Virus record (IMG/VR): IMGVR_UViG_3300025723_000017
Span: 1 to 64,000 of that record
Source: a virus
Lineage: Duplodnaviria; Caudoviricetes
Direction: 5' to 3' (one strand)
DNA length: 64,000 nucleotides
Both the position numbers and the translations under genes were made by a program. Numbering within the stretch: the stretch's first letter is position 1; the number at the start of each line of letters is the position of its first letter. The notes under the pieces were generated by a model, which was not told the DNA's origin, ran no database searches, and saw nothing but the letters and a program-made list of their open reading frames with translations. Below are positions 12,313 through 60,187 of the stretch, in pieces.

Positions 12313-15300
12313 ATGTCTAGCACATTAGTTTCCCCAGGTGTACAAGTCACTGTAGTTGATCAAAGCCAATATCTGCCAGCCGCTACTAATTCGGTTCCGC
12401 TTGTTGTTATTGCCACTGCATCAAACAAACTATCTTCAGATGGTACTGGCATTGCTCCTGGTACTTTAGCTATTAATGCCAATCAATTATTTTTGGCAAC
12501 TAGTCAACGTGCGTTGTCTGCTAATTATGGTACTCCATTCTTTTATACAACTACAAATGGAACTCCTATTAATGGATACGAGCTTAACGAATATGGCTTA
12601 TTAGCTGCCTATTCAGCATTAGGCGTTACTAACCAATGTTACGTGTTACGTGCTGATATTGATTTAGCTGCTCTTAGCGCCAGCTTAACACGCCCAACTG
12701 GTAATCCATTCAATGGTACTTATTGGCTAGACACTGTTAATACTACATGGGGACTATTTCAATGGAATGTTAGTACTAGTACATTTACTAATCAAATTCC
12801 TTCGGTAATTACTAATGCAGACTATTTGAATAATAGCTCATCTGTGCCATTGCAAACATATGGTAGCATTGGAAATTATGCAGTAACTGCCACATATTCT
12901 TCAAACCCAATTTACTTTAAACGCGGTGGTCCAACTACTACACAATCTAATGATACTAGAATTACTTCTTTATATAATACTTGGGTATTAGTAGGTAGTG
13001 ATGATTGGCAATCAGCATGGGCAACTGTGCAAGGATCTACTACACCAACTAGTTTAATTGCTGGTAATACTTTTACAATTAATGGAAGTACTATCACTGT
13101 TCCAGTTGGGCCAAATAATACAGTTAGCGGTGTTGTTAATGCAATTACTACTGCTGCAATTACTGGCGTATATGCAGCTAACATTGGTGGTTCACTAAAT
13201 TTATATTGTGATAAAACTGCTGCCAGTGGTGCAGGTACAATTACTATAGCAAATCTTTCAGGCACTGCTCTTACTACATTGGGAATAACAGAGGGGACAT
13301 ATTATGCCCCGTACTATCAAGCATCGCCAAGTTATCAAGTTCCAACATGGAGCACAGGTGGTACATCAGCTACTGGTGTTACAGGTTCTATATGGCAAAA
13401 AACTAATTCAGTTAACAATGGTACTACACTTGTTATGAAAGAATATAATTCAACTCTGGGTGTATTTGTAATTAAATCTTGCCCAGTATATTCTTCAGAT
13501 GCCACTGCAATTTATAGTTTAGATCCATCGGGAGGCGGCCAAAATATTGCTTCTGGATCATTATATGCAGAATCGACTCCTTTTAATGACAATACTGCGG
13601 GATTTACAATTTATGAACGCTATGCAGCTGGATCAACGATTGTTACTGGATCCAACACAACGCAAACTTTTATTTCTGGTAACTCATTTACTATATCAGC
13701 AACACAACCAGGTACAGCATCTATTACAACTGCCACTGCTATATTAAGTGGAACTACTACAAGTGATTTTATAGCCGCAGTTAGTTCAGCTGCCATTCCT
13801 TATGTTAGTGCTTCTGTTGCTAGTACTGGTGCAATTGTGTTTACACACAGTGCCGGCGGAGATATTACATTAACCAATGTTAGTGGTACACCAGTAACAG
13901 CCGCAGGATTTACTACAAATACTTTCTTATGCCGTCAAAATTATATTGATGGTTCAGATTCGGGACTCATTTTAAGTAATTGGGTTGGTAGTCCGACATT
14001 TAGCTATACTGCATCAGCAACTGCTCCAGATCAAAACCCAACAACAGGAACATACTGGTATTATAGCGATCCTACACAAGTTGATATTATGATTCAACAA
14101 AATGGAGAATGGGTAGGCTATCAAACGGTTACTTCTGATTCACGTGGTTATAATTTAACAATGTGTAATGCGACTGGTCCTATTATCAGTACAACTGCTC
14201 CCCTAACTCAAACAGACACAGCAATGAGTCCTTTAGTATATGGAGATTTATGGATTAACACTAGTGATTTAGAAAATTATCCGTTGGTATATCGTTGGCA
14301 AAATGTTAATGGTGTTGATCAATGGGTACAAATTGATAATGCAGATCAAACACAATCTAGTGGTATTTTATTTGCTGATGCACGTTGGGCCCCGAACGGT
14401 ACAACTGACCCAATCGCAGATGCATTACCAACTATTGAAAGTCTGTTAACTAGCAATTATTTAGATCCGGATGCACCACTAGCTGAACTTTATCCAACTG
14501 GTATGCTATTATGGAATACACGTCGTTCAGGATTTAATGTTAAGACATTTGAATTGAACGCTTGGAATAATCAAGCATGGCCAACATATGATTGGAGCGC
14601 AAGCACAACTTATACTATCGGACAATACGTTCAATTTGACAATATCGTATATGCCTGTATCAAAAATAGCACTAATAACGAACCTGATACAAGTCCTACA
14701 TATTGGTCTATTCAAACACAAACTAATACATGGAATTCTGCGGTTGGTTCTCGTCCGGACGGAAGCCCATATATGGGTCGTCAAGCACAACGTAAGATTA
14801 TTGTTGACGCTTTAAAGAATGCGATTGACACTAATACAACAATTCGTGAAGAACAAAATTCATATAATCTAATAGCTGTTACAGGTTATCCAGAGTTGGC
14901 TCCTAACATGGTAGCATTAAACAACGAAATTAATAATGTAGCATTTAGTATTATTGACACTCCATTGCGTTTATCTCCATCGAATGTTACAACATGGGCT
15001 ACTAACAATAACGGATTAGGATTACCTACAGGTGATGGTAATTTAGCATCAGGAGATAGCTATGGCGCAACATTTTACCCAAGCTGTGAAACAACTGATT
15101 TAAGCGGAAACACATGTGTAACTTATCCAAGTCATATGATGATTCGTACAATTATACGTAGTGACGAAATTGCTTATCCTTGGTTAGCTCCAGCTGGAAC
15201 ACGTCGTGGCTTAGTTGATAATGCATTCCAATTAGGCTATTTAAATAGTATAACTGGTGCATTTGAGACATTAGGTGTTGGTCAATCAATACGTGATGTT

Positions 15301-15723
15301 TTATATGTTAATAATATTAACCCAATCACATTTATACCTGGTGTTGGTATTACTAACTTTGGTAATAAGACATTACAAGGAACTGCGAGTGCATTAAATC
15401 GTATTAACGTAGCAAGATTAGTATGTTTTATTCGTGCTAGACTTAATACAATTGGTAAGCAATACTTGTTTGAACCTAATGATCAAATTACTCGTACTGA
15501 AATTGGGAACACAATTACAAGTTTAATGATTGATCTAGTGGCCAAGCGTGGAATTTATGACTATTTGGTAGTGTGTGATAATACAAATAACACTCCTAGT
15601 ACTATTGATCAAAATCAATTATGGGTTGACATCGCAATTGAACCAGTTAAGGCAGTGGAGTTTATCTATATTCCATTACGTATTGAAAATACTGGAGCAA
15701 TTGCAGCGCAGGCTGCTGCTTAA
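12313..15723 (+). CDS. Contractile tail sheath protein (gp18-like), enlarged
   Basis: N-terminal LVSPGVQV.VVD; C-terminal WLAPAG.RRG, INPI, FGNKT, RINVARL, LFEPND, VVCD..NNT, IEPVKAVEFIYIP. Confidence 0.95.
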   Translation: MSSTLVSPGVQVTVVDQSQYLPAATNSVPLVVIATASNKLSSDGTGIAPGTLAINANQLFLATSQRALSANYGTPFFYTTTNGTPINGYELNEYGLLAAYSALGVTNQCYVLRADIDLAALSASLTRPTGNPFNGTYWLDTVNTTWGLFQWNVSTSTFTNQIPSVITNADYLNNSSSVPLQTYGSIGNYAVTATYSSNPIYFKRGGPTTTQSNDTRITSLYNTWVLVGSDDWQSAWATVQGSTTPTSLIAGNTFTINGSTITVPVGPNNTVSGVVNAITTAAITGVYAANIGGSLNLYCDKTAASGAGTITIANLSGTALTTLGITEGTYYAPYYQASPSYQVPTWSTGGTSATGVTGSIWQKTNSVNNGTTLVMKEYNSTLGVFVIKSCPVYSSDATAIYSLDPSGGGQNIASGSLYAESTPFNDNTAGFTIYERYAAGSTIVTGSNTTQTFISGNSFTISATQPGTASITTATAILSGTTTSDFIAAVSSAAIPYVSASVASTGAIVFTHSAGGDITLTNVSGTPVTAAGFTTNTFLCRQNYIDGSDSGLILSNWVGSPTFSYTASATAPDQNPTTGTYWYYSDPTQVDIMIQQNGEWVGYQTVTSDSRGYNLTMCNATGPIISTTAPLTQTDTAMSPLVYGDLWINTSDLENYPLVYRWQNVNGVDQWVQIDNADQTQSSGILFADARWAPNGTTDPIADALPTIESLLTSNYLDPDAPLAELYPTGMLLWNTRRSGFNVKTFELNAWNNQAWPTYDWSASTTYTIGQYVQFDNIVYACIKNSTNNEPDTSPTYWSIQTQTNTWNSAVGSRPDGSPYMGRQAQRKIIVDALKNAIDTNTTIREEQNSYNLIAVTGYPELAPNMVALNNEINNVAFSIIDTPLRLSPSNVTTWATNNNGLGLPTGDGNLASGDSYGATFYPSCETTDLSGNTCVTYPSHMMIRTIIRSDEIAYPWLAPAGTRRGLVDNAFQLGYLNSITGAFETLGVGQSIRDVLYVNNINPITFIPGVGITNFGNKTLQGTASALNRINVARLVCFIRARLNTIGKQYLFEPNDQITRTEIGNTITSLMIDLVAKRGIYDYLVVCDNTNNTPSTIDQNQLWVDIAIEPVKAVEFIYIPLRIENTGAIAAQAAA

Positions 15724-50936: not shown

Positions 50937-51507
50937 ATGGATAGGACATAGTCCTTTTAGATTATTTACAGTAATATTATTGTGTTTCTTAACCTTTATT
51001 GGGTGGGTCGGATATACCGAAAAAGATAAATTCATGGAAAGCTATCGCGCCCAACAGGCATTGCCGCACATGAATGGTAAGTATGAAGAAGCGTCTAATT
51101 TTATAATCAAGAATAGTCAAGCAGAGTTAATTGCTATTTACGAAGTTAACACACTATTAAACACACGCAAGTTGATATATTTTACCACACGTAGTGGTGG
51201 GCAGGACACCACTAGGTATGGATCAGATGTTGGACTACTGACAAAAGATTATGACAATAATAATGATGTCATTTCCATGATGTCAGGTAAAGTTCCTTGT
51301 CAAACTTATGAACGTCCGCAAAGTTTTATGGGATTCGTGTATGTAGAGCATGGAGTAAAGTATATGTGCAGAATCAGTGTACCGACAGAACCTGGCACAT
51401 TCATAGGACAAATTTCAGTAGGTTGGAAAGAAATTCCCAGTAAACATGATATTGAAGTTGGACAAACTGTAATGTCAGTCGCCAGCGGTATATTGTATAA
51501 AAAATGA
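50899..51507 (+). CDS. Single-TM membrane protein with periplasmic GAF-like domain (T4 holin T-like architecture)
   Basis: Amphipathic N-terminus, one TM helix, ~160-aa C-domain ending 'YMCRISVP..GTFIGQISVGW...ASGIL'. Confidence 0.5.
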   Translation: MSEIKQFLLNLLEWIGHSPFRLFTVILLCFLTFIGWVGYTEKDKFMESYRAQQALPHMNGKYEEASNFIIKNSQAELIAIYEVNTLLNTRKLIYFTTRSGGQDTTRYGSDVGLLTKDYDNNNDVISMMSGKVPCQTYERPQSFMGFVYVEHGVKYMCRISVPTEPGTFIGQISVGWKEIPSKHDIEVGQTVMSVASGILYKK

Positions 51508-52190
51508 AACGGCTAGGCGTATTGGGTGGGATGGGACCAGCGGCTAGTGCAGAATTTCTTGTAAGATTGACTGAACAAACTCCAGCAGGATGTGATCAGG
51601 AACATATTCCTGTTGTGGTATGGAGTGATCCAACTGTGCCAGATCGCAGCACTAGTTTGATTAATCAAGATGATCAGCCTTGGCCTAAACTCTGTCAGGG
51701 TATGCTAGGATTAAAAGCGGCCGAATGTGATCATATAGTAATTCCCTGTAACACAGCACATTTTTGGTATGATCGAATGATGGAATTTGGTATACCGATT
51801 ACACATATTGTAGATAGTGTAGCTGATGAATTAAAGTCTCAAAATATAAAAGGTACCATTGGTATATTAGGAACTCGTGCCACCATGCGGTTGGGTCTGT
51901 ATGATCAAAGACTCACCGCAATGGGATGGGATTGTATAACTCCCACTGTAGAAGAAATAGAAAACTATGTGCAGCCTGGTATAGATTTAATTAAAGCTAA
52001 TCAATTCGAAATAGCTCATGGATTGTTTGTTACAGTTATCGAATCTTTAATTAATCGAGGGGCATCAGCAATAATTTTAGGCTGCACTGAAATTCCATTG
52101 GTTGTTAAAGAAACACAATATCATAGTATTAGTTTAATAAATAGCATTGACAGTTTAGTTAAATCGACTATTAATAAATTCAAAGGATAA
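51504..52190 (+). CDS. Aspartate/glutamate racemase family (RacX/YgeA-like)
   Basis: GVLGGMGP.A, PDR, IPCNTAH, ILGCTEIP; both catalytic cysteines present. Confidence 0.92.
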   Translation: MKRLGVLGGMGPAASAEFLVRLTEQTPAGCDQEHIPVVVWSDPTVPDRSTSLINQDDQPWPKLCQGMLGLKAAECDHIVIPCNTAHFWYDRMMEFGIPITHIVDSVADELKSQNIKGTIGILGTRATMRLGLYDQRLTAMGWDCITPTVEEIENYVQPGIDLIKANQFEIAHGLFVTVIESLINRGASAIILGCTEIPLVVKETQYHSISLINSIDSLVKSTINKFKG

Positions 52191-52193
52191 ATT

Positions 52194-52391
52194 ATGTTGA
52201 CATTTGTAAAATCATTAGTTATACTAGCAGTATTAGTAGGCACATACCATGGTATGTCATGGGCAATTGACAAAAAAGCCGATGAAAAAGCATTATCTAT
52301 GATAATGACTGAATATCAAACAAGTGCTCGCGAAGATGCAAGAGATCAGGCAATGAAAGCAATCGTAGATTCATATGTAGCTAAAAAATAA
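52194..52391 (+). CDS. Small membrane-anchored hypothetical protein
   Basis: Hydrophobic N-terminus, AAGGA RBS. Confidence 0.6.
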   Translation: MLTFVKSLVILAVLVGTYHGMSWAIDKKADEKALSMIMTEYQTSAREDARDQAMKAIVDSYVAKK

Positions 52392-53833
52392 TGGCCTATT
52401 CAGATAAAGTTTTAGATCATTATGAAAATCCTCGCAATGTGGGTTCATTTGCCAAAGACGATGCTGATGTTGGCACAGGCATGGTAGGAGCTCCTGCGTG
52501 TGGAGATGTAATGAAGTTACAGATAAAGGTATCAGATGGCGTTATTACAGATGCAAAGTTTAAGACCTACGGATGTTTAACTAGTAATACCCCTGTTAAT
52601 ACTCCAACATGCGTTAAAAAAATCAAAGATTTAAATATCGGAGATGAGGTACTGGCTTGGGATGGCAATCGCATTGTTAATCAAAAAATAAGAGATATAA
52701 TCAAACATTCAGTTGATATCAGTGATTTGTTGGTAGTTTCATTCCAACGAGAAACAAGTAGAAAAAATATCAATCCCGGCACCTTTTCGTTGATTTGTAC
52801 CAAAGAACACATATTTTGGAATGCCGATAATAATCCTGTAGAAGCACAACAACTACAGGTGGGGCAAGAATTATATGAAATAACCGAACATGAGTTAAGA
52901 ATTCTTACCAACAATAGACATCGAACAGAAATTAAACAGAAAAATAGCGCAAGAATGAAAAAATGGAACACCGAATTTGATCATTCTGTATTGCCACAGA
53001 ATCAACCCGGATATGTATGTAAGAACCCAGAAGCTAAAAAGCAACGCTCCAGTGCTGCTTCAATTAAAAACTGGCAAGATCCTAGTTATATTGAAAAGTG
53101 GCAACAAGGAATGGCACAACGAGATTGGTCTAAACCTACTAGTATTGAAAAAAAATATATTGATTTATTTGAAGAAAATAATGTAGCGGCAAGATGGAGT
53201 GCTGGAACAATATGGATTCAAACCACATCAGGCCCCGCAAGTCCGGATTTTATTGTTCCCGGCAAGAAAAAATGTATAGAAGTTTATACAAAGAAAATGC
53301 CAAAGTTTATGCAAGATAGATCAGAAGAATCGGATTATGTCCAAAAAAGAAGTCAACAACTTGCAACAGCAGGATACGATTCATTATTTTTGTCAGTAGA
53401 AGAAATTGAACAGGCACTGCCTAAGGTACAGAATTTTATACATAATGGCATGAAAATTATCGATATTTCTCCAATCACACATCATAATCAACTACGAGGA
53501 TGTGAGCGTGATGACAAAAATGTTGTAGTATATGATTTAAAATTAGAGGATGGTGCCCATGTATTTTTTACAAATAGAGTCGGCTCACACAACTGCGGAT
53601 CAGCAATCGCAAGTAGTTCTTTGGTCACTGAATGGGTCAAAGGAAAATCTCTCGAAGCTGCTGGATGTATTAGAAATAGCGACATTGCCCAAGAACTGGC
53701 ACTTCCACCAGTCAAAATCCACTGTTCAATCCTTGCCGAAGATGCAATTAAAGCAGCAATAGCTGATTATAGAAACAAACATGAAACTACCAATAGTTCG
53801 ATGGCCAGATCCAGTACTACTGACACCATGTAA
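52391..53833 (+). CDS. iscU: Fe-S cluster scaffold IscU, intein-containing precursor
   Basis: MAYSDKVLDHYENPRNVG..GAPACGDVM..FKTYG | intein | CGSAIASSS..LPPVKIHCSILAEDAIKAA. Confidence 0.95.
   Translation: MAYSDKVLDHYENPRNVGSFAKDDADVGTGMVGAPACGDVMKLQIKVSDGVITDAKFKTYGCLTSNTPVNTPTCVKKIKDLNIGDEVLAWDGNRIVNQKIRDIIKHSVDISDLLVVSFQRETSRKNINPGTFSLICTKEHIFWNADNNPVEAQQLQVGQELYEITEHELRILTNNRHRTEIKQKNSARMKKWNTEFDHSVLPQNQPGYVCKNPEAKKQRSSAASIKNWQDPSYIEKWQQGMAQRDWSKPTSIEKKYIDLFEENNVAARWSAGTIWIQTTSGPASPDFIVPGKKKCIEVYTKKMPKFMQDRSEESDYVQKRSQQLATAGYDSLFLSVEEIEQALPKVQNFIHNGMKIIDISPITHHNQLRGCERDDKNVVVYDLKLEDGAHVFFTNRVGSHNCGSAIASSSLVTEWVKGKSLEAAGCIRNSDIAQELALPPVKIHCSILAEDAIKAAIADYRNKHETTNSSMARSSTTDTM
52574..53593 (+). 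mobile_element. Intein (340 aa) with internal PD-(D/E)XK/Vsr-like endonuclease domain
   Basis: Block A CLTSNTPV, block B CTKEHIF, block F VVYDLKL, block G SHN|C; internal 'KPTSIE..PDF....CIEV'. Confidence 0.92.
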
Positions 53834-54275
53834 CACTTGGTTCTTTGACACGTTGACGGAACCTAATATAGAACAAGATCTCATCGATACATTGTTAGGT
53901 GAAAGTGCATTGGGACTAGCAGCAAATCAAGTGGGCATTCCTTATCGAGTATTGGCTATGAATGTACAAGCAGGTGAGTTTGCTGGACAACAGATAGTCA
54001 TGTATAACCCCGTTATTGATTCTGTCTCGACCGATCTATGGGAGCATAGCGAGGGTTGTTTGAGTTTTCCCGGAGTATGGTTATCTATCTCTCGTCCTAA
54101 TTCCGTTGATGCCAGTTGGCAAGACCAGGCGGGGATATCACATTCATCAACCTTTACGGGAATGGATGCCCGATGTTTCCTACATGAAATGGAACATTTA
54201 GATGGGCATGTATTCAAAGAACATGTAAGTGATCTGAAATTTACTCGAGCATTAACAAAAGCGAGGAAGAAATAA
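53781..54275 (+). CDS. def: Peptide deformylase
   Basis: GLAANQVG, EGCLS, HEMEHLDG motifs. Confidence 0.93.
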   Translation: MKLPIVRWPDPVLLTPCNTWFFDTLTEPNIEQDLIDTLLGESALGLAANQVGIPYRVLAMNVQAGEFAGQQIVMYNPVIDSVSTDLWEHSEGCLSFPGVWLSISRPNSVDASWQDQAGISHSSTFTGMDARCFLHEMEHLDGHVFKEHVSDLKFTRALTKARKK

Positions 54276-54502
54276 TGGGATTAGGCCCATCGGTTTGTCA
54301 GCATTGCCAGGTGATTGCTGAATACGAGCACAATGATATCGCACCCTTTCATCGCACTTGGTGTAAATACTGTGGTGAGACAGATATAACAGATTATTCA
54401 GGCTTGAATGATGAGCGTTGGGAAATGCTGGAAGATAATAGACGCCGACTTGAACGATTTCATAACTTTGTAAAAGGTATAGACAATGATAACAATAACT
54501 GA
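54275..54502 (+). CDS. Small Zn-ribbon hypothetical protein
   Basis: CQHC...CKYC; GAGG RBS. Confidence 0.6.
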   Translation: MGLGPSVCQHCQVIAEYEHNDIAPFHRTWCKYCGETDITDYSGLNDERWEMLEDNRRRLERFHNFVKGIDNDNNN

Positions 54503-54812
54503 AACAGCAGCAAAAAAAATCGTAGCTAACATAGCCAAGCGTGGGGCAGGTATTGGAATTCATGTTGGTGTAAAGACTACAGGATGCTCGGGACTGGCCT
54601 ATGTATTAGAATACTTGGATCATGCACCTGTTACTAGAGATTGGTTCCGTTATGAAAATGCCGGGGCTACGGTTTGGATTGCAGGAAGAGATCACGTATA
54701 CTTAGATGGATTAGAAATTGACTATGTACGTCGAGGACTCAACGAAGGCTTTGAGTTCCGGAATCCTCGGGAAAAGGCTCGCTGCGGATGTGGTGAATCG
54801 TTTACAATCTAA
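54486..54812 (+). CDS. iscA: A-type Fe-S carrier IscA
   Basis: GVKTTGCSGLAY, IDY, F.F.NP, CGCGESF. Confidence 0.93.
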   Translation: MITITETAAKKIVANIAKRGAGIGIHVGVKTTGCSGLAYVLEYLDHAPVTRDWFRYENAGATVWIAGRDHVYLDGLEIDYVRRGLNEGFEFRNPREKARCGCGESFTI

Positions 54813-54851
54813 AAGGTTGTTTTATATCAACTGGTTTGCTATACTTGATTA

Positions 54852-55571
54852 ATGTATACACCTAAATTTGACTATAAAAATCTATCACGAACTACTGATG
54901 AAGCAGGAAAGCGATTATATAGCACTCCCGACGGACGACGAGTTCCATCAGTCACTACAATTCTTTCCGCGACACAACCAGAAGAAAAAAAACAAGCATT
55001 ACAAAATTGGCGTAAATCAGTTGGAGTTGACCGTGCGCAAGCTATTACTACAGAGGCTGCTAATCGAGGTACTAGGATGCACAAATATCTCGAAGATTAT
55101 ATTCGCAATGGAGTAATAAGTGATCGTGGATCTAATCCCTATAGTTGGGCAAGTCATAGAATGGCACAAACTGTAATCGAAGATGGGCTCAAAAATGTTA
55201 ACGAAATATGGGGTGTAGAAATACCCTTATATTTCCCTCAATTATATGCTGGTACTACTGACGGATGTGGTATACACATGGGAGACGAAAGTATTCTTGA
55301 TTATAAACAAACAAATAAACCTAAAAAAATAGAGTGGATCGAAGATTACTACTTACAGTTGGTAGCGTATGCTTTAGCGCATAATGAAGTTTATGGAACA
55401 AATATACGTAAAGGAGTGATTTTGATGTGTGTCAAGCCTCCTGTAGATCCTAATACTATGGAACCAACTGAACGTCCTCAATATCAGGAATTTATCTTGA
55501 AACCTGAAGATTTCTCTCATTGGGAACAAGAATGGTGGAAACGATTAGAACTCTACTACACGAATAGCTAA
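54852..55571 (+). CDS. PD-(D/E)XK exonuclease
   Basis: PSVTTIL, RGT.MH..LE, YAGTTD, ILDYKQ, QL.AY. Confidence 0.85.
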   Translation: MYTPKFDYKNLSRTTDEAGKRLYSTPDGRRVPSVTTILSATQPEEKKQALQNWRKSVGVDRAQAITTEAANRGTRMHKYLEDYIRNGVISDRGSNPYSWASHRMAQTVIEDGLKNVNEIWGVEIPLYFPQLYAGTTDGCGIHMGDESILDYKQTNKPKKIEWIEDYYLQLVAYALAHNEVYGTNIRKGVILMCVKPPVDPNTMEPTERPQYQEFILKPEDFSHWEQEWWKRLELYYTNS

Positions 55572-55597
55572 ATACTTAATATTAAGGAATCAAGTAA

Positions 55598-57418
55598 ATG
55601 GCCATTGTCCAAATTTCACAAATCACGAATCGACTAGGATTAAATGCAGATTTACCGCAACTTGCGGGGGCTGAACTAGGTTGGTCCACTGACACCCGTC
55701 AACTCTATATCGGCAATGGCACTTTATCAGAGGGTGCACCTGTTATTGGCAATACTGAGATTTTAACAGAATTTTCTGACATTTTAAATATAGCTGCTAG
55801 TTATACTTATAAAGGCACCGCAGCTGGTTATACTGTACAAACTGGACCAACTCCTAGCACTCCGGTTAAATTAAGTTTACAAAATTGGATGGATCAGTTT
55901 GCATCTGTTTTAGATTTTGGTGCAGTTGGAGATGGGTTGACTGATGATACCGCTGCTATTAATCGTGCATTAAATCAATTATATTGTCAACAATCTAATC
56001 CACAGATTCGAAGAAATTTATTTTTTCCCGCGGGAGTATATGCAGTTTCTAGTCCAATTAATATTCCCCCGTATGCCACCTTGTACGGCGAAGGATCAAA
56101 TAGTTCCATCATAAGAATGATAGCATCAGGAGGAACCGGAACTTGCGTGGCACAAACCGCAGATAGTTTGCAACAAACTGGGTCTAATATCGGAAATGGT
56201 AGTGCGATCCCGCCTCAACATATTACTATTAGTACTATGGGATTTCAAAGTTTAGACAATACAAAAAATATATTTTTAGTTGATTCTGCCACCAGCACTA
56301 CATTTGACAATGTAGGATTTTTTGGACCAGGTAGTACCAGTACATTAACTGTTGCTACATTAAATACCTCTAGTGTAGCTTTTGTAATATCGAATGGATT
56401 TAAAATAGAAGATATAATACTTGATAATTGTAGATTTTTTGGAACAGTTTATGGGGTTTCTGATAATGTTTCTACAAAAGGTGTTACAGTTACAAATAGT
56501 AATTTTAATACATTATATCAAGGTGTTAATGTAACGAATGGAGCAACAGGAACACGTATTACTAATAATATATTTGATAATATTTATGAATATGGTATTT
56601 TATTTGGTACTGTATCCCTTAATGTAAGCGGATATAATATATTTTATGATGTCGCAAATCATTTTCTAGGTACAACATCGCCGCAGCAAGCAGTAATATT
56701 AATCGAGGGCAATAATAATGCCAGTGTTGGAGACATGTTTCAACGCTCAGATTTATATGCAGAACAATATCCTCGAGTATATTTAACTGATACAGTTAGT
56801 ATCGCAACAACTAATGGATCTCAATTACAATTAGGTAATAAAACAGTTGAGTCAGGTGTAGCAGTTGAATTACAAACTGGACATGCTACCCCAACAACAT
56901 TATTCACTGTTGATAATTCTATATTTTGGCAACAAGCAGTAAGTTTCAAAATAGATTATTCAATAATATTAGGAGCTGGTCAATTTAGAACCGGAGTATT
57001 ATTTGTAGCTAGTTCAGAACGTGGCGGCACAATATTGCCCATAACAGGTGCATCAGGCGACGGTACTACCGTGACTTTAACATTTACTACCCAACCTACT
57101 GCACCATTCGCTATAGGCAGTGTAATTTCAATTGACGGAATTTATCCACTTGATTATAACGAAACATACGCTACCGTTACATCATGTACTACATCTACAG
57201 TAAGTTATGCTAGTGTTGCGACTGATGCATACGTTAGCGGTGGACAAGTAAGTTTAAATAATCTCAACTATAGTGATGACTATGTTGAAAACAGTGATAC
57301 TGGAATTGTATTGACTGTTTCTCAAATAGGAACTGTAGTATCAGTACAATATACTTCACTAGCAGCAACGAATGCTGGACAAATGAGTTATTCTATTAGT
57401 TATTTTAATGTGGCATAA
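55598..57418 (+). CDS. Tailspike/fibre protein with pectate-lyase-like beta-helix
   Basis: N-terminal 'LPQL..AELGW..D..QLYIGNG'; 'SVLDFGAVGDG.TDDTAAIN..FPAGVY'; late promoter at 55568. Confidence 0.8.
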   Translation: MAIVQISQITNRLGLNADLPQLAGAELGWSTDTRQLYIGNGTLSEGAPVIGNTEILTEFSDILNIAASYTYKGTAAGYTVQTGPTPSTPVKLSLQNWMDQFASVLDFGAVGDGLTDDTAAINRALNQLYCQQSNPQIRRNLFFPAGVYAVSSPINIPPYATLYGEGSNSSIIRMIASGGTGTCVAQTADSLQQTGSNIGNGSAIPPQHITISTMGFQSLDNTKNIFLVDSATSTTFDNVGFFGPGSTSTLTVATLNTSSVAFVISNGFKIEDIILDNCRFFGTVYGVSDNVSTKGVTVTNSNFNTLYQGVNVTNGATGTRITNNIFDNIYEYGILFGTVSLNVSGYNIFYDVANHFLGTTSPQQAVILIEGNNNASVGDMFQRSDLYAEQYPRVYLTDTVSIATTNGSQLQLGNKTVESGVAVELQTGHATPTTLFTVDNSIFWQQAVSFKIDYSIILGAGQFRTGVLFVASSERGGTILPITGASGDGTTVTLTFTTQPTAPFAIGSVISIDGIYPLDYNETYATVTSCTTSTVSYASVATDAYVSGGQVSLNNLNYSDDYVENSDTGIVLTVSQIGTVVSVQYTSLAATNAGQMSYSISYFNVA

Positions 57419-57818
57419 AGATTTTAATGATCGACTAAAATCCTGGTCGGCCTTACGTACAGAAATTCAAACTATCCCATTAGAGCAAGCTCTCTATATG
57501 ATTAACGATTGGTGGCATCAAGCACCATGGACTGGATATTATCTACATTGGGATGACCGGGAAACATGGCCTGACCCTTGGCAACTTTTGAGCGATAACA
57601 TTTATTGTGATGTTGCTCGTGGGCTGGGAATACTGTATACTGTAACTTTAACGCAACATAAAGAGTTGACTTCTGCAGAGTTGGTTTTGACTGAAGATAG
57701 TCGTAATTTAGTGTTAATTAACAAAGGAAAATATACGCTTAATTGGGACAAAGAAGTTATGGTAAATACTCCATTATCAAAAAAAGTGAGACATTGTTTT
57801 ATAAAGTCTGGGTTGTAA
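57408..57818 (+). CDS. Hypothetical Trp-rich protein
   Basis: 'WPDPWQLL..N.YC' motif. Confidence 0.65.
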   Translation: MWHKDFNDRLKSWSALRTEIQTIPLEQALYMINDWWHQAPWTGYYLHWDDRETWPDPWQLLSDNIYCDVARGLGILYTVTLTQHKELTSAELVLTEDSRNLVLINKGKYTLNWDKEVMVNTPLSKKVRHCFIKSGL

Positions 57819-57859
57819 TAGTATCATAAGTAGTACACAAAATAAAAAAAGAGAAATAA

Positions 57860-60187
57860 ATGACTCAAATTACAGTTGTAAAAAGAGGCGGAAATAAAGA
57901 ACCGCTACAAATTGAAAAATGGCAAGCTCAAGTAGCAAAGGTTTGTAAAGGCATAGCTGATGTAAGTCAATCAATGGTGGAAATTAAAGCACAATTGCAT
58001 TTTTATGATGGAATTACTACTGAGGAAATTGATGGGATTACACTTAGGGCTATTGTAGATCTTATTGATACTGAAACAAATCCTGATGTAGGCCATACCA
58101 ACTACCAGTATGTTGCTGGTAAACAAAGATTGTCAATGCTAAGAAAAGATGTGTATGGGTCATATGATCCACCTGCACTTTATGAAATTGTAAAGAAAAA
58201 TGTTGCAGTAGGTTTATATACCCCAGAACTTCTTGAATGGTATACAGAAGATGATTGGAATCGTATGAATGATATGATTGATCATTCTAAAGATGAGCAA
58301 TATGGGTATGCGGCCATTGAACAACTTATTGAAAAATATCTAGTCCGTAATCGTGCTACAAAGGAGATCTATGAAACTCCTCAAGTTAGATACATGGTGG
58401 CCGCGGCCACAGTCTTCCATCGAGAAGAACCTAATACAGTCCGTATGCGCTACATTAAAGAATACTACAATGCGGCAAGTGATGGCTTATTCACTCTTGC
58501 CACTCCTGTGCTTGCAGGCCTTGGGACTCCTACTAAACAGTTTTCATCTTGTGTTCTTATCCGCAGTGACGACAATCTCGATAGCATCTTTGCTTCCGGC
58601 GAGATGATGGCCAAGTATGCCGCCAAACGTGCAGGCATTGGGCTGGAAGTTGGTCGTTTACGTCCATTAGGCAGTCCTATACGTGGCGGTGAAGTAATGC
58701 ACACTGGTATGATACCATTTCTTAAAAAATGGTTTGGCGATCTGCGTTCGTGTTCGCAAGGAGGTATTCGTAATGCTTCGGCTACGATTTTCTACCCCAT
58801 TTGGCATTACCAATTCGATGATCTTATTGTTCTTAAAAACAATCAAGGTACAGATGAGACACGAGTAAGATTTATGGATTATGGAGTTGTGTTATCTGCA
58901 TTTTTCTGGCGTAGATTTAAGAACAAAGAAAATATTACTTTCTTTGATCCCAATGAAGTGCCTGACTTATACGAAGCATTCTACAAAGATACTGAATTAT
59001 TCGAAAAATTGTATGTAAAGTATGAAAAACGTAAAGACTTACGTACTAAAACAATGGCAGCTGAAGATGTATTCAAAGGCGGCATATTAAAAGAGCGCAC
59101 AGATACTGGACGCATTTATCTTGTGTTTATCGACAACGTACAGAATCAAGGTCCATTTGATCCTGAATACCACACCATTTATCAGAGTAATCTTTGCTGT
59201 GAAATTCTCCTTCCTACTAAATCCTTTAAACGTCTGGATGATGACGCTGGCCGTATTGCTTTGTGTACGCTTGGTAGTATTAACTGGGGATCTTTCCGTA
59301 ACCCAGAGGACATGCGGCGTGCTTGCCGTATTCTTCAGCGTAGCCTGTGCAATATACTTGACTACCAAGATTTTCTAAGTATTCAATCTAAATTAAGTAA
59401 TGACGAAATCCAACCATTAGGTATTGGTATTACAAATTTAGCCTACTGGCATGCTAAACGCGGGTTGAAGTATGGCGACGCTGATGCATTACAAGAAGTT
59501 AAATCTTGGATGGAACACCAAGCATTTTATCTTACAGAAGCTACTGTAGAGTTGGCTAAGGAACGTGGTAAATGCTTAGATTCAGATCGTACTCGATATG
59601 GACAAGGCGTATTTCCTTGGGAATTACGTGCCCGTGGCGTTAATGATCTAGCTGACTTTACTCCAGAACTTGACTGGGAAACCTTGCGCACTAATATGAA
59701 AGAATATGGGGTCCGTAATGCTACATTAATGGCAGTGGCACCTGTAGAGTCAAGCAGTGTGGTGATTAATAGCACTAATGGAATTGAAATGCCTATGAGT
59801 TTGATCACAGTTAAAGAATCAAAAGCAGGGTCACTGGTACAAGTTGTTCCGGAATATAACAATTTAAAAGTTCGTAAAAACTATCAATTGATGTGGGATC
59901 AAAAAGATTGTAGTGGATATCTAAAAACTGCTGCAATATTGGCAGCTTTTGTGGATCAATCTATTTCAACTAATACTTTTTATAATCCAGCACACTTTGC
60001 AGATCGTAAAGTACCAACTACATTGATTGCTAAGAATTTGATGAATTTCTGGTATTGGGGCGGAAAAACTCTGTATTACTCACTCATAAACAAACAGGGT
60101 AGTAAAGGACAAGATGCCGAAGAAACTAAACTTGAAATAATTGATTTTAGTGAAGAAGAAGAGGATTGCATCGCCTGTAAACTTTAA
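57860..60187 (+). CDS. nrdA: Ribonucleotide reductase class Ia alpha subunit with ATP cone
   Basis: VVKR ATP cone, FSSCVL, SQGGIR, QSNLCCEI, LCTL, AP.ESSS, KTLYY, C-terminal CxxC. Confidence 0.97.
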   Translation: MTQITVVKRGGNKEPLQIEKWQAQVAKVCKGIADVSQSMVEIKAQLHFYDGITTEEIDGITLRAIVDLIDTETNPDVGHTNYQYVAGKQRLSMLRKDVYGSYDPPALYEIVKKNVAVGLYTPELLEWYTEDDWNRMNDMIDHSKDEQYGYAAIEQLIEKYLVRNRATKEIYETPQVRYMVAAATVFHREEPNTVRMRYIKEYYNAASDGLFTLATPVLAGLGTPTKQFSSCVLIRSDDNLDSIFASGEMMAKYAAKRAGIGLEVGRLRPLGSPIRGGEVMHTGMIPFLKKWFGDLRSCSQGGIRNASATIFYPIWHYQFDDLIVLKNNQGTDETRVRFMDYGVVLSAFFWRRFKNKENITFFDPNEVPDLYEAFYKDTELFEKLYVKYEKRKDLRTKTMAAEDVFKGGILKERTDTGRIYLVFIDNVQNQGPFDPEYHTIYQSNLCCEILLPTKSFKRLDDDAGRIALCTLGSINWGSFRNPEDMRRACRILQRSLCNILDYQDFLSIQSKLSNDEIQPLGIGITNLAYWHAKRGLKYGDADALQEVKSWMEHQAFYLTEATVELAKERGKCLDSDRTRYGQGVFPWELRARGVNDLADFTPELDWETLRTNMKEYGVRNATLMAVAPVESSSVVINSTNGIEMPMSLITVKESKAGSLVQVVPEYNNLKVRKNYQLMWDQKDCSGYLKTAAILAAFVDQSISTNTFYNPAHFADRKVPTTLIAKNLMNFWYWGGKTLYYSLINKQGSKGQDAEETKLEIIDFSEEEEDCIACKL

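Follow-up and report, generated by a model that had tools for sequence, protein, structure and literature searches.

Why does a gene for an iron-sulfur (Fe-S) cluster scaffold protein, carried by a bacteriophage, contain an in-frame insertion of 340 codons, and why does that insertion stand exactly before the codon for a cysteine that holds the cluster? The gene lies in an IMG/VR virus record (IMGVR_UViG_3300025723_000017), a linear contig of 154,059 bp with a CheckV completeness estimate of 45%. Positions below refer to the window, the first 64,000 nucleotides of this record. Phage hallmarks encoded in the window include a tail sheath, a large terminase, a helicase and a class I ribonucleotide reductase (RNR). 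The nearest match of the large terminase in the "phages" collection is to the group of the Pseudomonas jumbo phage PA5oct, with 53% identity. The tail sheath protein (window 12313-15723; phrog_10581, E 1.5e-196) is unusually long, at 1136 amino acids.

The interrupted iscU gene and its neighbors

The iscU sequence forms a single intact ORF of 480 codons (Table 1). Its product is matched by the Pfam NifU_N profile in two separate stretches (E 2e-47), the N-terminal one covering residues 2-65, and it scores 202.8 bits against a cut-off of 192.4 with the curated equivalog NCBIfam TIGR01999 (iscU). A phmmer comparison to the PDB aligned precursor residues 1-62 with E. coli IscU residues 1-63, and precursor residues 402-466 with IscU residues 63-127 (E 1e-55). 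These profile and PDB matches to IscU are far beyond what chance would give. Because the alignment to E. coli IscU splits there, the insert was assigned to residues 62-401 (340 amino acids; 52574-53593); E. coli IscU itself is contiguous across the site, so that the in-frame insert splits a conserved protein. With a slash for the splice point, the junctions read FKTYG/CLTSN... and ...VGSHN/CGSAIASS. An insert of this length breaking IscU at FKTYG/CGSAIAS had been proposed in the initial annotation, and the ORF and the PDB alignment confirm it along with its coordinates. The same phmmer alignment upholds the accompanying claim that the residue following the insert, the +1 Cys402, corresponds to the cluster ligand Cys63 of E. 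coli IscU.

Removal of the insert is predicted to leave an IscU of 140 amino acids (480 - 340), as the initial annotation had expected, with all ligands retained. The exteins contain counterparts of Cys37, Asp39, His105 and Cys106, as well as the LPPVK motif. In the full-length AlphaFold model (120 sequences; pLDDT 80) both exteins of the precursor close into one IscU fold (TM-score 0.96 to 3lvl_A; Z 22 to 4eb5_C), so the splice junction would sit at the metal site.

Table 1. Features of the iscU locus, with positions in the 64,000-nucleotide window
Feature	Position	Strand	Evidence or content
Asp/Glu racemase gene	51504-52190		PF01177, E 5e-40
iscU precursor ORF	52391-53833	+	480 amino acids
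IscU N-extein, residues 1-61	52391-52573	+	Cys37 and Asp39 in GAPACGD; ends FKTYG; aligns with E. coli IscU 1-62
Hint domain, N-terminal part, intein residues 1-105	52574-52888	+	block A Cys1 52574-52576; block B TKEH 52799-52810
Putative in-frame homing-endonuclease domain, intein residues 106-290	52889-53443	+	helical NUMOD-like putative DNA-binding part, then Vsr-like/EDxHD-like core ~53138-53446
Hint domain, C-terminal part, intein residues 291-340	53444-53593	+	block F VYDLKLEDGAHVFF; block G VGSHN
IscU C-extein, residues 402-480 and stop	53594-53833	+	Cys402 (= Cys63), LPPVK, His444 and Cys445 (= His105 and Cys106); aligns with E. coli IscU 63-127
Peptide deformylase gene	53781-54275		PF01327, E 1e-36
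IscA/HesB-type A-type carrier gene	54486-54812	+	PF01521, E 3e-14

The gene is flanked by genes for an Asp/Glu racemase and a peptide deformylase, after which comes a gene for an IscA-type carrier. The IscA-type gene is a conserved neighbor of iscU in this phage group and adjoins it in most related loci, whether or not these contain the intein. A longer module, consisting of iscU, iscA, a PD-(D/E)XK nuclease gene, a gene for a 606-amino-acid tail-spike-like protein, and nrdA (window 52391-60187), recurs in many uncultivated phages. No IscS gene, radical SAM gene or second iscU was found in the 154-kb record, and no second copy of the IscU intein. The spliced phage IscU presumably partners with the IscS and HscA/HscB proteins of the host. 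Megablast of the locus against cultured phages gave no match, and tblastn of the whole protein gave, among cultured phages, only uninterrupted IscU proteins such as that of Phage C48C1.

Splicing motifs, Hint fold and endonuclease domain

We conclude that the 340-amino-acid insert is a class 1 intein, which presumably splices. The block A nucleophile, Cys62 (intein Cys1), is present in all 38 loci identified, is invariant in 26 aligned inteins, and is at least 90% conserved across 120 homologs. The Thr and His of block B (T137-K-E-H140) are invariant both in the 120 homologs and in the 26 inteins. Also invariant across the 120 homologs are D382 of block F, H400, N401 and C402, along with a non-catalytic cysteine, Cys136, that adjoins block B; H390 of block F is at least 90% conserved. 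The splicing blocks that had been read from the sequence in the initial annotation (Cys1, TxxH, HN and the +1 Cys) are thus present, and conserved across the 120 homologs. About 69 phage alleles read KTYG/CGSAIASS with no insert.

The predicted structure points in the same direction. When a model of the intein by itself was searched with Foldseek, the top matches were all to inteins, BIL domains or Hedgehog domains (E 2e-5 to 1e-3, probability 1.0), and VIA-align gave Hint matches with Z of 7-8.4 over residues 61-397. Structures matched by the Hint part include 2lwy, 6riy, 6qaz and 6zgq. Curated intein profiles scored below their cut-offs on the precursor (Pfam Hint, 21.8 bits against 29.7; TIGR01443, 12.2 against 15.6), and PF14890 had no match in the phage's own record. 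When the intein alone was searched against Pfam and NCBIfam, only the sub-threshold Hint match was obtained and the endonuclease part was unmatched. We read these low scores as a sign of divergent sequence, a profile match not being what defines a splicing mechanism; since the profiles fall below cut-off, the case for an intein rests on motifs, fold and comparative data.

The comparative data include a natural mini-intein of 155 amino acids at the same IscU site (locus L038, 6001-6465). It lacks exactly the residues corresponding to intein residues 106-290 and keeps all of the splicing blocks. L038 comes from a bin assigned to a Fischerella metagenome-assembled genome (MAG); it is probably a phage contig that was binned with a cyanobacterium, because its neighbors are the phage IscA, nuclease and RNR genes.

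The segment that is missing from the mini-intein appears to encode an endonuclease whose type, neither LAGLIDADG nor HNH, is the more unusual feature of this intein and was absent from the initial annotation. Its assignment to the Vsr-like (I-Bth0305I-like) family is supported by the modeled fold and, in part, by motif. Residues 250-352 of the model align by VIA-align with I-Bth0305I (3r3p_B; Z 10.2, rmsd 2.8 Å, 91 of 98 residues), which ranked first among the non-IscU matches in a set of 48,161 chains; the next structural matches of the nuclease core were the DUF559-like 3hrl (Z 8.8) and Vsr itself (1cw0, Z 8.5). This match was taken from the full-length model built with 120 sequences, which was preferred because the intein-only AlphaFold model was poorer in the nuclease core (pLDDT 43-53).

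In a profile search covering 1.84 billion representative sequences, free-standing proteins of 200-290 amino acids were found that align with the endonuclease part. One of these (P0209) contains a NUMOD3 motif (E 4.5e-13); the corresponding N-terminal region of the intein's endonuclease is helical in the model and has no Pfam match of its own. A profile of the 26 inteins only, searched against the PDB, gave spurious matches for the nuclease part, and the free-standing relatives were needed to reach 3r3p. With a family profile made from 5 intein-borne and 26 free-standing endonuclease domains, 3r3p was the sole PDB match below E 0.1 (E 2.4e-5).

E253, Pro-Asp286-Phe, K293 and E297 are invariant across the intein-borne domains and the 26 free-standing relatives. 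As a hallmark, Vsr-like homing endonucleases have a Glu where Vsr itself has Phe62 (PMC2677866), and the intein endonuclease has an invariant Glu at this position. The last Asp of the EDxHD motif may be D309. The His of this motif (Vsr His69) has no clear aligned counterpart in the intein branch, and some of the free-standing relatives have WH there; nuclease activity is for this reason not assured. Estimates of dN/dS, made with dS near saturation (1.7-1.9), were 0.13 for the N-terminal Hint part, 0.12 for the endonuclease and 0.10 for the C-terminal Hint part, values that indicate purifying selection on the splicing and endonuclease parts alike.

Distribution and probable mobility of the intein

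Homologs of the interrupted protein fall into at least 120 protein clusters at the 90% identity level, with IscU proteins of 405-486 amino acids that are 65-92% identical to the query over ~97% of its length. Intein carriers were located on 36 IMG/VR contigs and 2 MAG contigs, and in all 38 the insertion is at KTYG/C...SHN/CGSAIA. The two MAG contigs were the only ones found among species-representative prokaryote genomes, and phage synteny is seen in at least one of the two (L038). IscU had been described in the initial annotation as an unusual host for an intein. That description agrees with the literature, since a full-text search for an intein with IscU or NifU found no paper describing one, but it does not hold for the metagenomes, where so many clusters and contigs have an intein at the identical site. 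The element is sporadic yet common in uncultivated large phages, and is not a rarity.

Most of the related phage iscU alleles are nevertheless uninterrupted. An iscU gene was found in more than 600 IMG/VR contigs, as against the 36 with the intein. When 77 further phage iscU loci were fetched by C-extein similarity, the site proved empty in about 69 of them. Many of the empty-site loci share the IscU-IscA-PD-(D/E)XK-p606-RNR module with the intein-bearing contigs. In a tree of extein DNA, the intein is carried by 27 of 97 alleles, which are scattered; its presence or absence requires 13 changes on this tree, compared to a mean of 23.3 when states were shuffled. Though short and poorly resolved, the extein tree has well-supported branches that by themselves force at least 2 changes of state.

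The most similar intein, in L001, has 79.7% nucleotide identity to ours over iscU plus intein, while the flanks are more distant (69%). The reverse is seen for L023, in which the flanks are closer (76.6%) and the intein region is more distant (71.7%). By these sequence comparisons, intein similarity and flank similarity disagree. The GC content of the intein (0.34-0.36) matches that of the genome (0.367), so that it is no recent arrival from a distant source. In the DNA around the insertion site the first and second codon positions are nearly invariant in both types of allele. When the L001 gene (L001:2280-3671) was compared, minus its intein, to the nearest empty alleles (L110 and L095), nucleotide identity was 68-72% in the N-extein and 88-93% in the C-extein, a step that is suggestive of a recombination breakpoint at the intein site. 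The phages compared are too diverged (~70-80% nucleotide identity) for a search around the L001 site to reveal a fresh co-conversion tract. Taken as sequence data, the distribution has the pattern that would be expected of a homing intein cycle of gain, spread, endonuclease loss and absence.

We think it very probable that the insert is both a class 1 intein and a selfish homing element. From the established motifs, folds and exact site, the presence/absence polymorphism, the endonuclease-deleted derivative, the purifying selection and the patchy, discordant distribution, we infer splicing, DNA cleavage and homing along the following lines. The gene would be translated as a 480-amino-acid precursor. 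An N-S acyl shift at Gly61-Cys62 would be followed by transfer of the N-extein to Cys402, cyclization of Asn401 and an S-N shift, and the products would be a 140-amino-acid IscU, in which Cys402 becomes the cluster ligand Cys63, and a free intein of 340 amino acids. During co-infection the putative NUMOD-plus-Vsr-like endonuclease would cut the intein-less iscU of related phages, and recombinational repair would copy the intein into the cut gene. We propose two reasons for the choice of this particular site: its DNA hardly varies, and it provides the Cys nucleophile on which splicing depends.

Several features of the endonuclease could also be accommodated if splicing were retained and the nuclease had become inactive or been repurposed, with the intein persisting by vertical descent and general recombination only. 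In the intein branch no His lines up with the residue proposed as general base in Vsr and I-Bth0305I, the domain has already been lost in the lineage of L038, and a tblastn search of the "phages" collection with the domain yielded a single, non-significant match (E 0.5). We nonetheless regard this explanation as unlikely, since the dN/dS of the domain is as low as that of the splicing parts, E253, D286, K293 and E297 are invariant even in the free-standing relatives, and the distribution of the intein is patchy, with similarities that are discordant between intein and flanks.

The nearest relatives outside of IscU are inteins in phage QueE radical SAM enzymes (P0147, P0151, P0161, P0163, P0177 and others). 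Their site, GCNLxCxx/C...HN/CDT, immediately precedes the last Cys of the CxxxCxxC motif, the third [4Fe-4S] ligand, and these inteins carry the same type of in-frame endonuclease. The same family of inteins and endonucleases was also seen in family B DNA polymerases, in a GATase-QueC fusion with two inteins, and in transglutaminase-like proteins (P0143, P0167, P0164, P0139 and P0188). Two further IscU homologs, P0133 and P0134, have two inteins each: a different mini-intein before Cys37 (GAPA/C...HN/CGDV), and a mini form of the IscU intein before Cys63. A third, P0140, has only the Cys63 mini-intein. The N-termini of these homologs, together with a replaced LPPVK motif, suggest that they belong to a different lineage, possibly of mitochondrial type.

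In the initial annotation it was suggested that the intein could make phage Fe-S assembly conditional on redox or metal status. In an adaptive switch of this kind, oxidation, Zn, Fe or a nascent cluster on the precursor would block or release splicing and so adjust Fe-S assembly by the phage to conditions in the cell; such a role would be compatible with mobility. In the model, Cys1 and the +1 Cys would lie inside the IscU assembly site, adjoining Cys37, Asp39, His105 and Cys106, which makes the geometry of a sensor chemically plausible, and the invariant Cys136 next to block B has no catalytic part in splicing. Related inteins likewise interrupt Fe-S ligand cysteines (QueE CxxxCxx/C and IscU Cys37). 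Sensitivity to Zn or oxidants in vitro is common to many inteins with Cys1 and Cys+1; it is likely here as well, and would be no proof of function. A precedent for a switch is the SufB intein of Mycobacterium tuberculosis, to which a sensor role for oxidative and nitrosative stress has been ascribed (Topilina 2015, as cited in PMC8891592). However, most related phages have an uninterrupted iscU, which argues against a required switch. The intein is not fixed in the lineage (27 of 97 alleles), so its distribution lends the switch no support, and its endonuclease is under purifying selection, as would be the case for a parasite. Homing alone would account for the choice of site, since the ligand cysteines offer the most conserved Cys codons available. 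An adaptive switch thus seems improbable to us.

A broader version would have a whole clade of inteins specialized in Fe-S ligand cysteines, with splicing gated by Zn, Fe, the cluster or thiol oxidation. The gate would arise because Cys1 and the +1 Cys sit in the metal site of a precursor that is already folded like IscU. We hold this, too, to be improbable.

That the insert simply destroyed iscU and left no functional scaffold is very hard to credit, as nothing beyond the interruption itself speaks for it, whereas the 480-codon frame is intact, more than 120 homologs retain all of the splicing residues and IscU ligands, all parts appear to be under purifying selection, and the 154-kb record has no second copy of iscU. 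Readings of the gene as a pseudogene, or of the insert as a BIL domain, were rejected on the basis of the intact frame, the conserved splicing residues and the purifying selection.

Significance and comparison with known systems

With a homing intein as the preferred reading, IscU, interrupted at a cluster-ligand Cys, joins the proteins known as intein hosts. It further appears that Vsr-like (EDxHD-like) endonucleases also occur in frame within contiguous inteins; in the literature searched they were described only as separate or antisense ORFs. The locus offers, as a resource, a compact and naturally Cys-dependent intein with a natural mini form of 155 amino acids, together with a candidate endonuclease whose target site is long. 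The related inteins at Fe-S ligand cysteines of IscU and QueE would provide a clean system for testing control of splicing by a metal site. If a splicing gate did operate, the infected cell's metal and redox status would govern maturation of the phage Fe-S scaffold.

Within Fe-S biology, the nearest analog is the SufB (Pps1) intein of M. tuberculosis. It likewise interrupts a protein of the Fe-S assembly machinery, and it too is a class 1 intein with Cys1, a block B His, His-Asn and a +1 Cys; at 359 amino acids it is similar in size (PMC8891592). Its host is a component of the SUF system, whereas the host described here is the ISC scaffold, and its endonuclease is of the LAGLIDADG type rather than Vsr-like. 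The SufB intein is reported to be conserved across mycobacterial species, while the IscU intein is sporadic. Stress-sensitive splicing has been shown for the SufB intein, according to the citation of Topilina 2015 in PMC8891592.

Related intein sequences also occur in radical SAM proteins, both in QueE and in the intein-containing proteins of NF038136 (the Rv2578c family), with hmmsearch E values of 1e-23 to 1e-8. As in IscU, the +1 Cys of the QueE intein is an Fe-S ligand, although the two inteins differ in host enzyme and flanking residues.

In its nuclease core, the intein appears to have the same catalytic fold as the nearest known relatives of its endonuclease, I-Bth0305I and other Vsr-like (EDxHD) endonucleases (Dassa 2009, PMC2677866; Taylor 2011, PMC3239194; 3R3P). 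It shares with this family the conserved Glu before the Mg-binding Asp, that Asp, and the Glu at the Vsr Phe62 position, as well as a phage and metagenome setting; the helical region N-terminal to the nuclease may be of the NUMOD type, too. Members of the I-Bth0305I family are encoded by a separate ORF, which lies within a group I intron or separates the two halves of a split intein (PMC2677866, PMC3239194), whereas the endonuclease of the IscU intein is in frame within a contiguous intein. The His of EDxHD is not evident in the IscU intein, and its target would be iscU, unlike the DNA-metabolism genes that are targets of the I-Bth0305I family.

A parallel for an endonuclease of this type within a full intein is found among the non-canonical inteins of actinobacteriophages (Gosselin, Arsenault, Gogarten 2025, bioRxiv 10.1101/2025.01.02.630785). 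These have endonucleases other than LAGLIDADG, some of them Vsr-like or EDxHD-like with matches to 3R3P and 1CW0, and, like the IscU intein, they show a patchy distribution that suggests ongoing transfer. They interrupt polymerase, minor capsid, terminase and ThyX proteins, not IscU, and their Vsr-like endonucleases are encoded on the antisense strand of the intein rather than in frame. This survey places Vsr-like endonucleases solely with split inteins and, as a new finding, antisense in full inteins, and the in-frame endonucleases that it reports are LAGLIDADG or HNH only (bioRxiv 10.1101/2025.01.02.630785). Since only split and antisense cases are listed there, the in-frame Vsr-like fusion is undescribed in the literature we searched; in metagenomes, by our profile search, it is clearly common.
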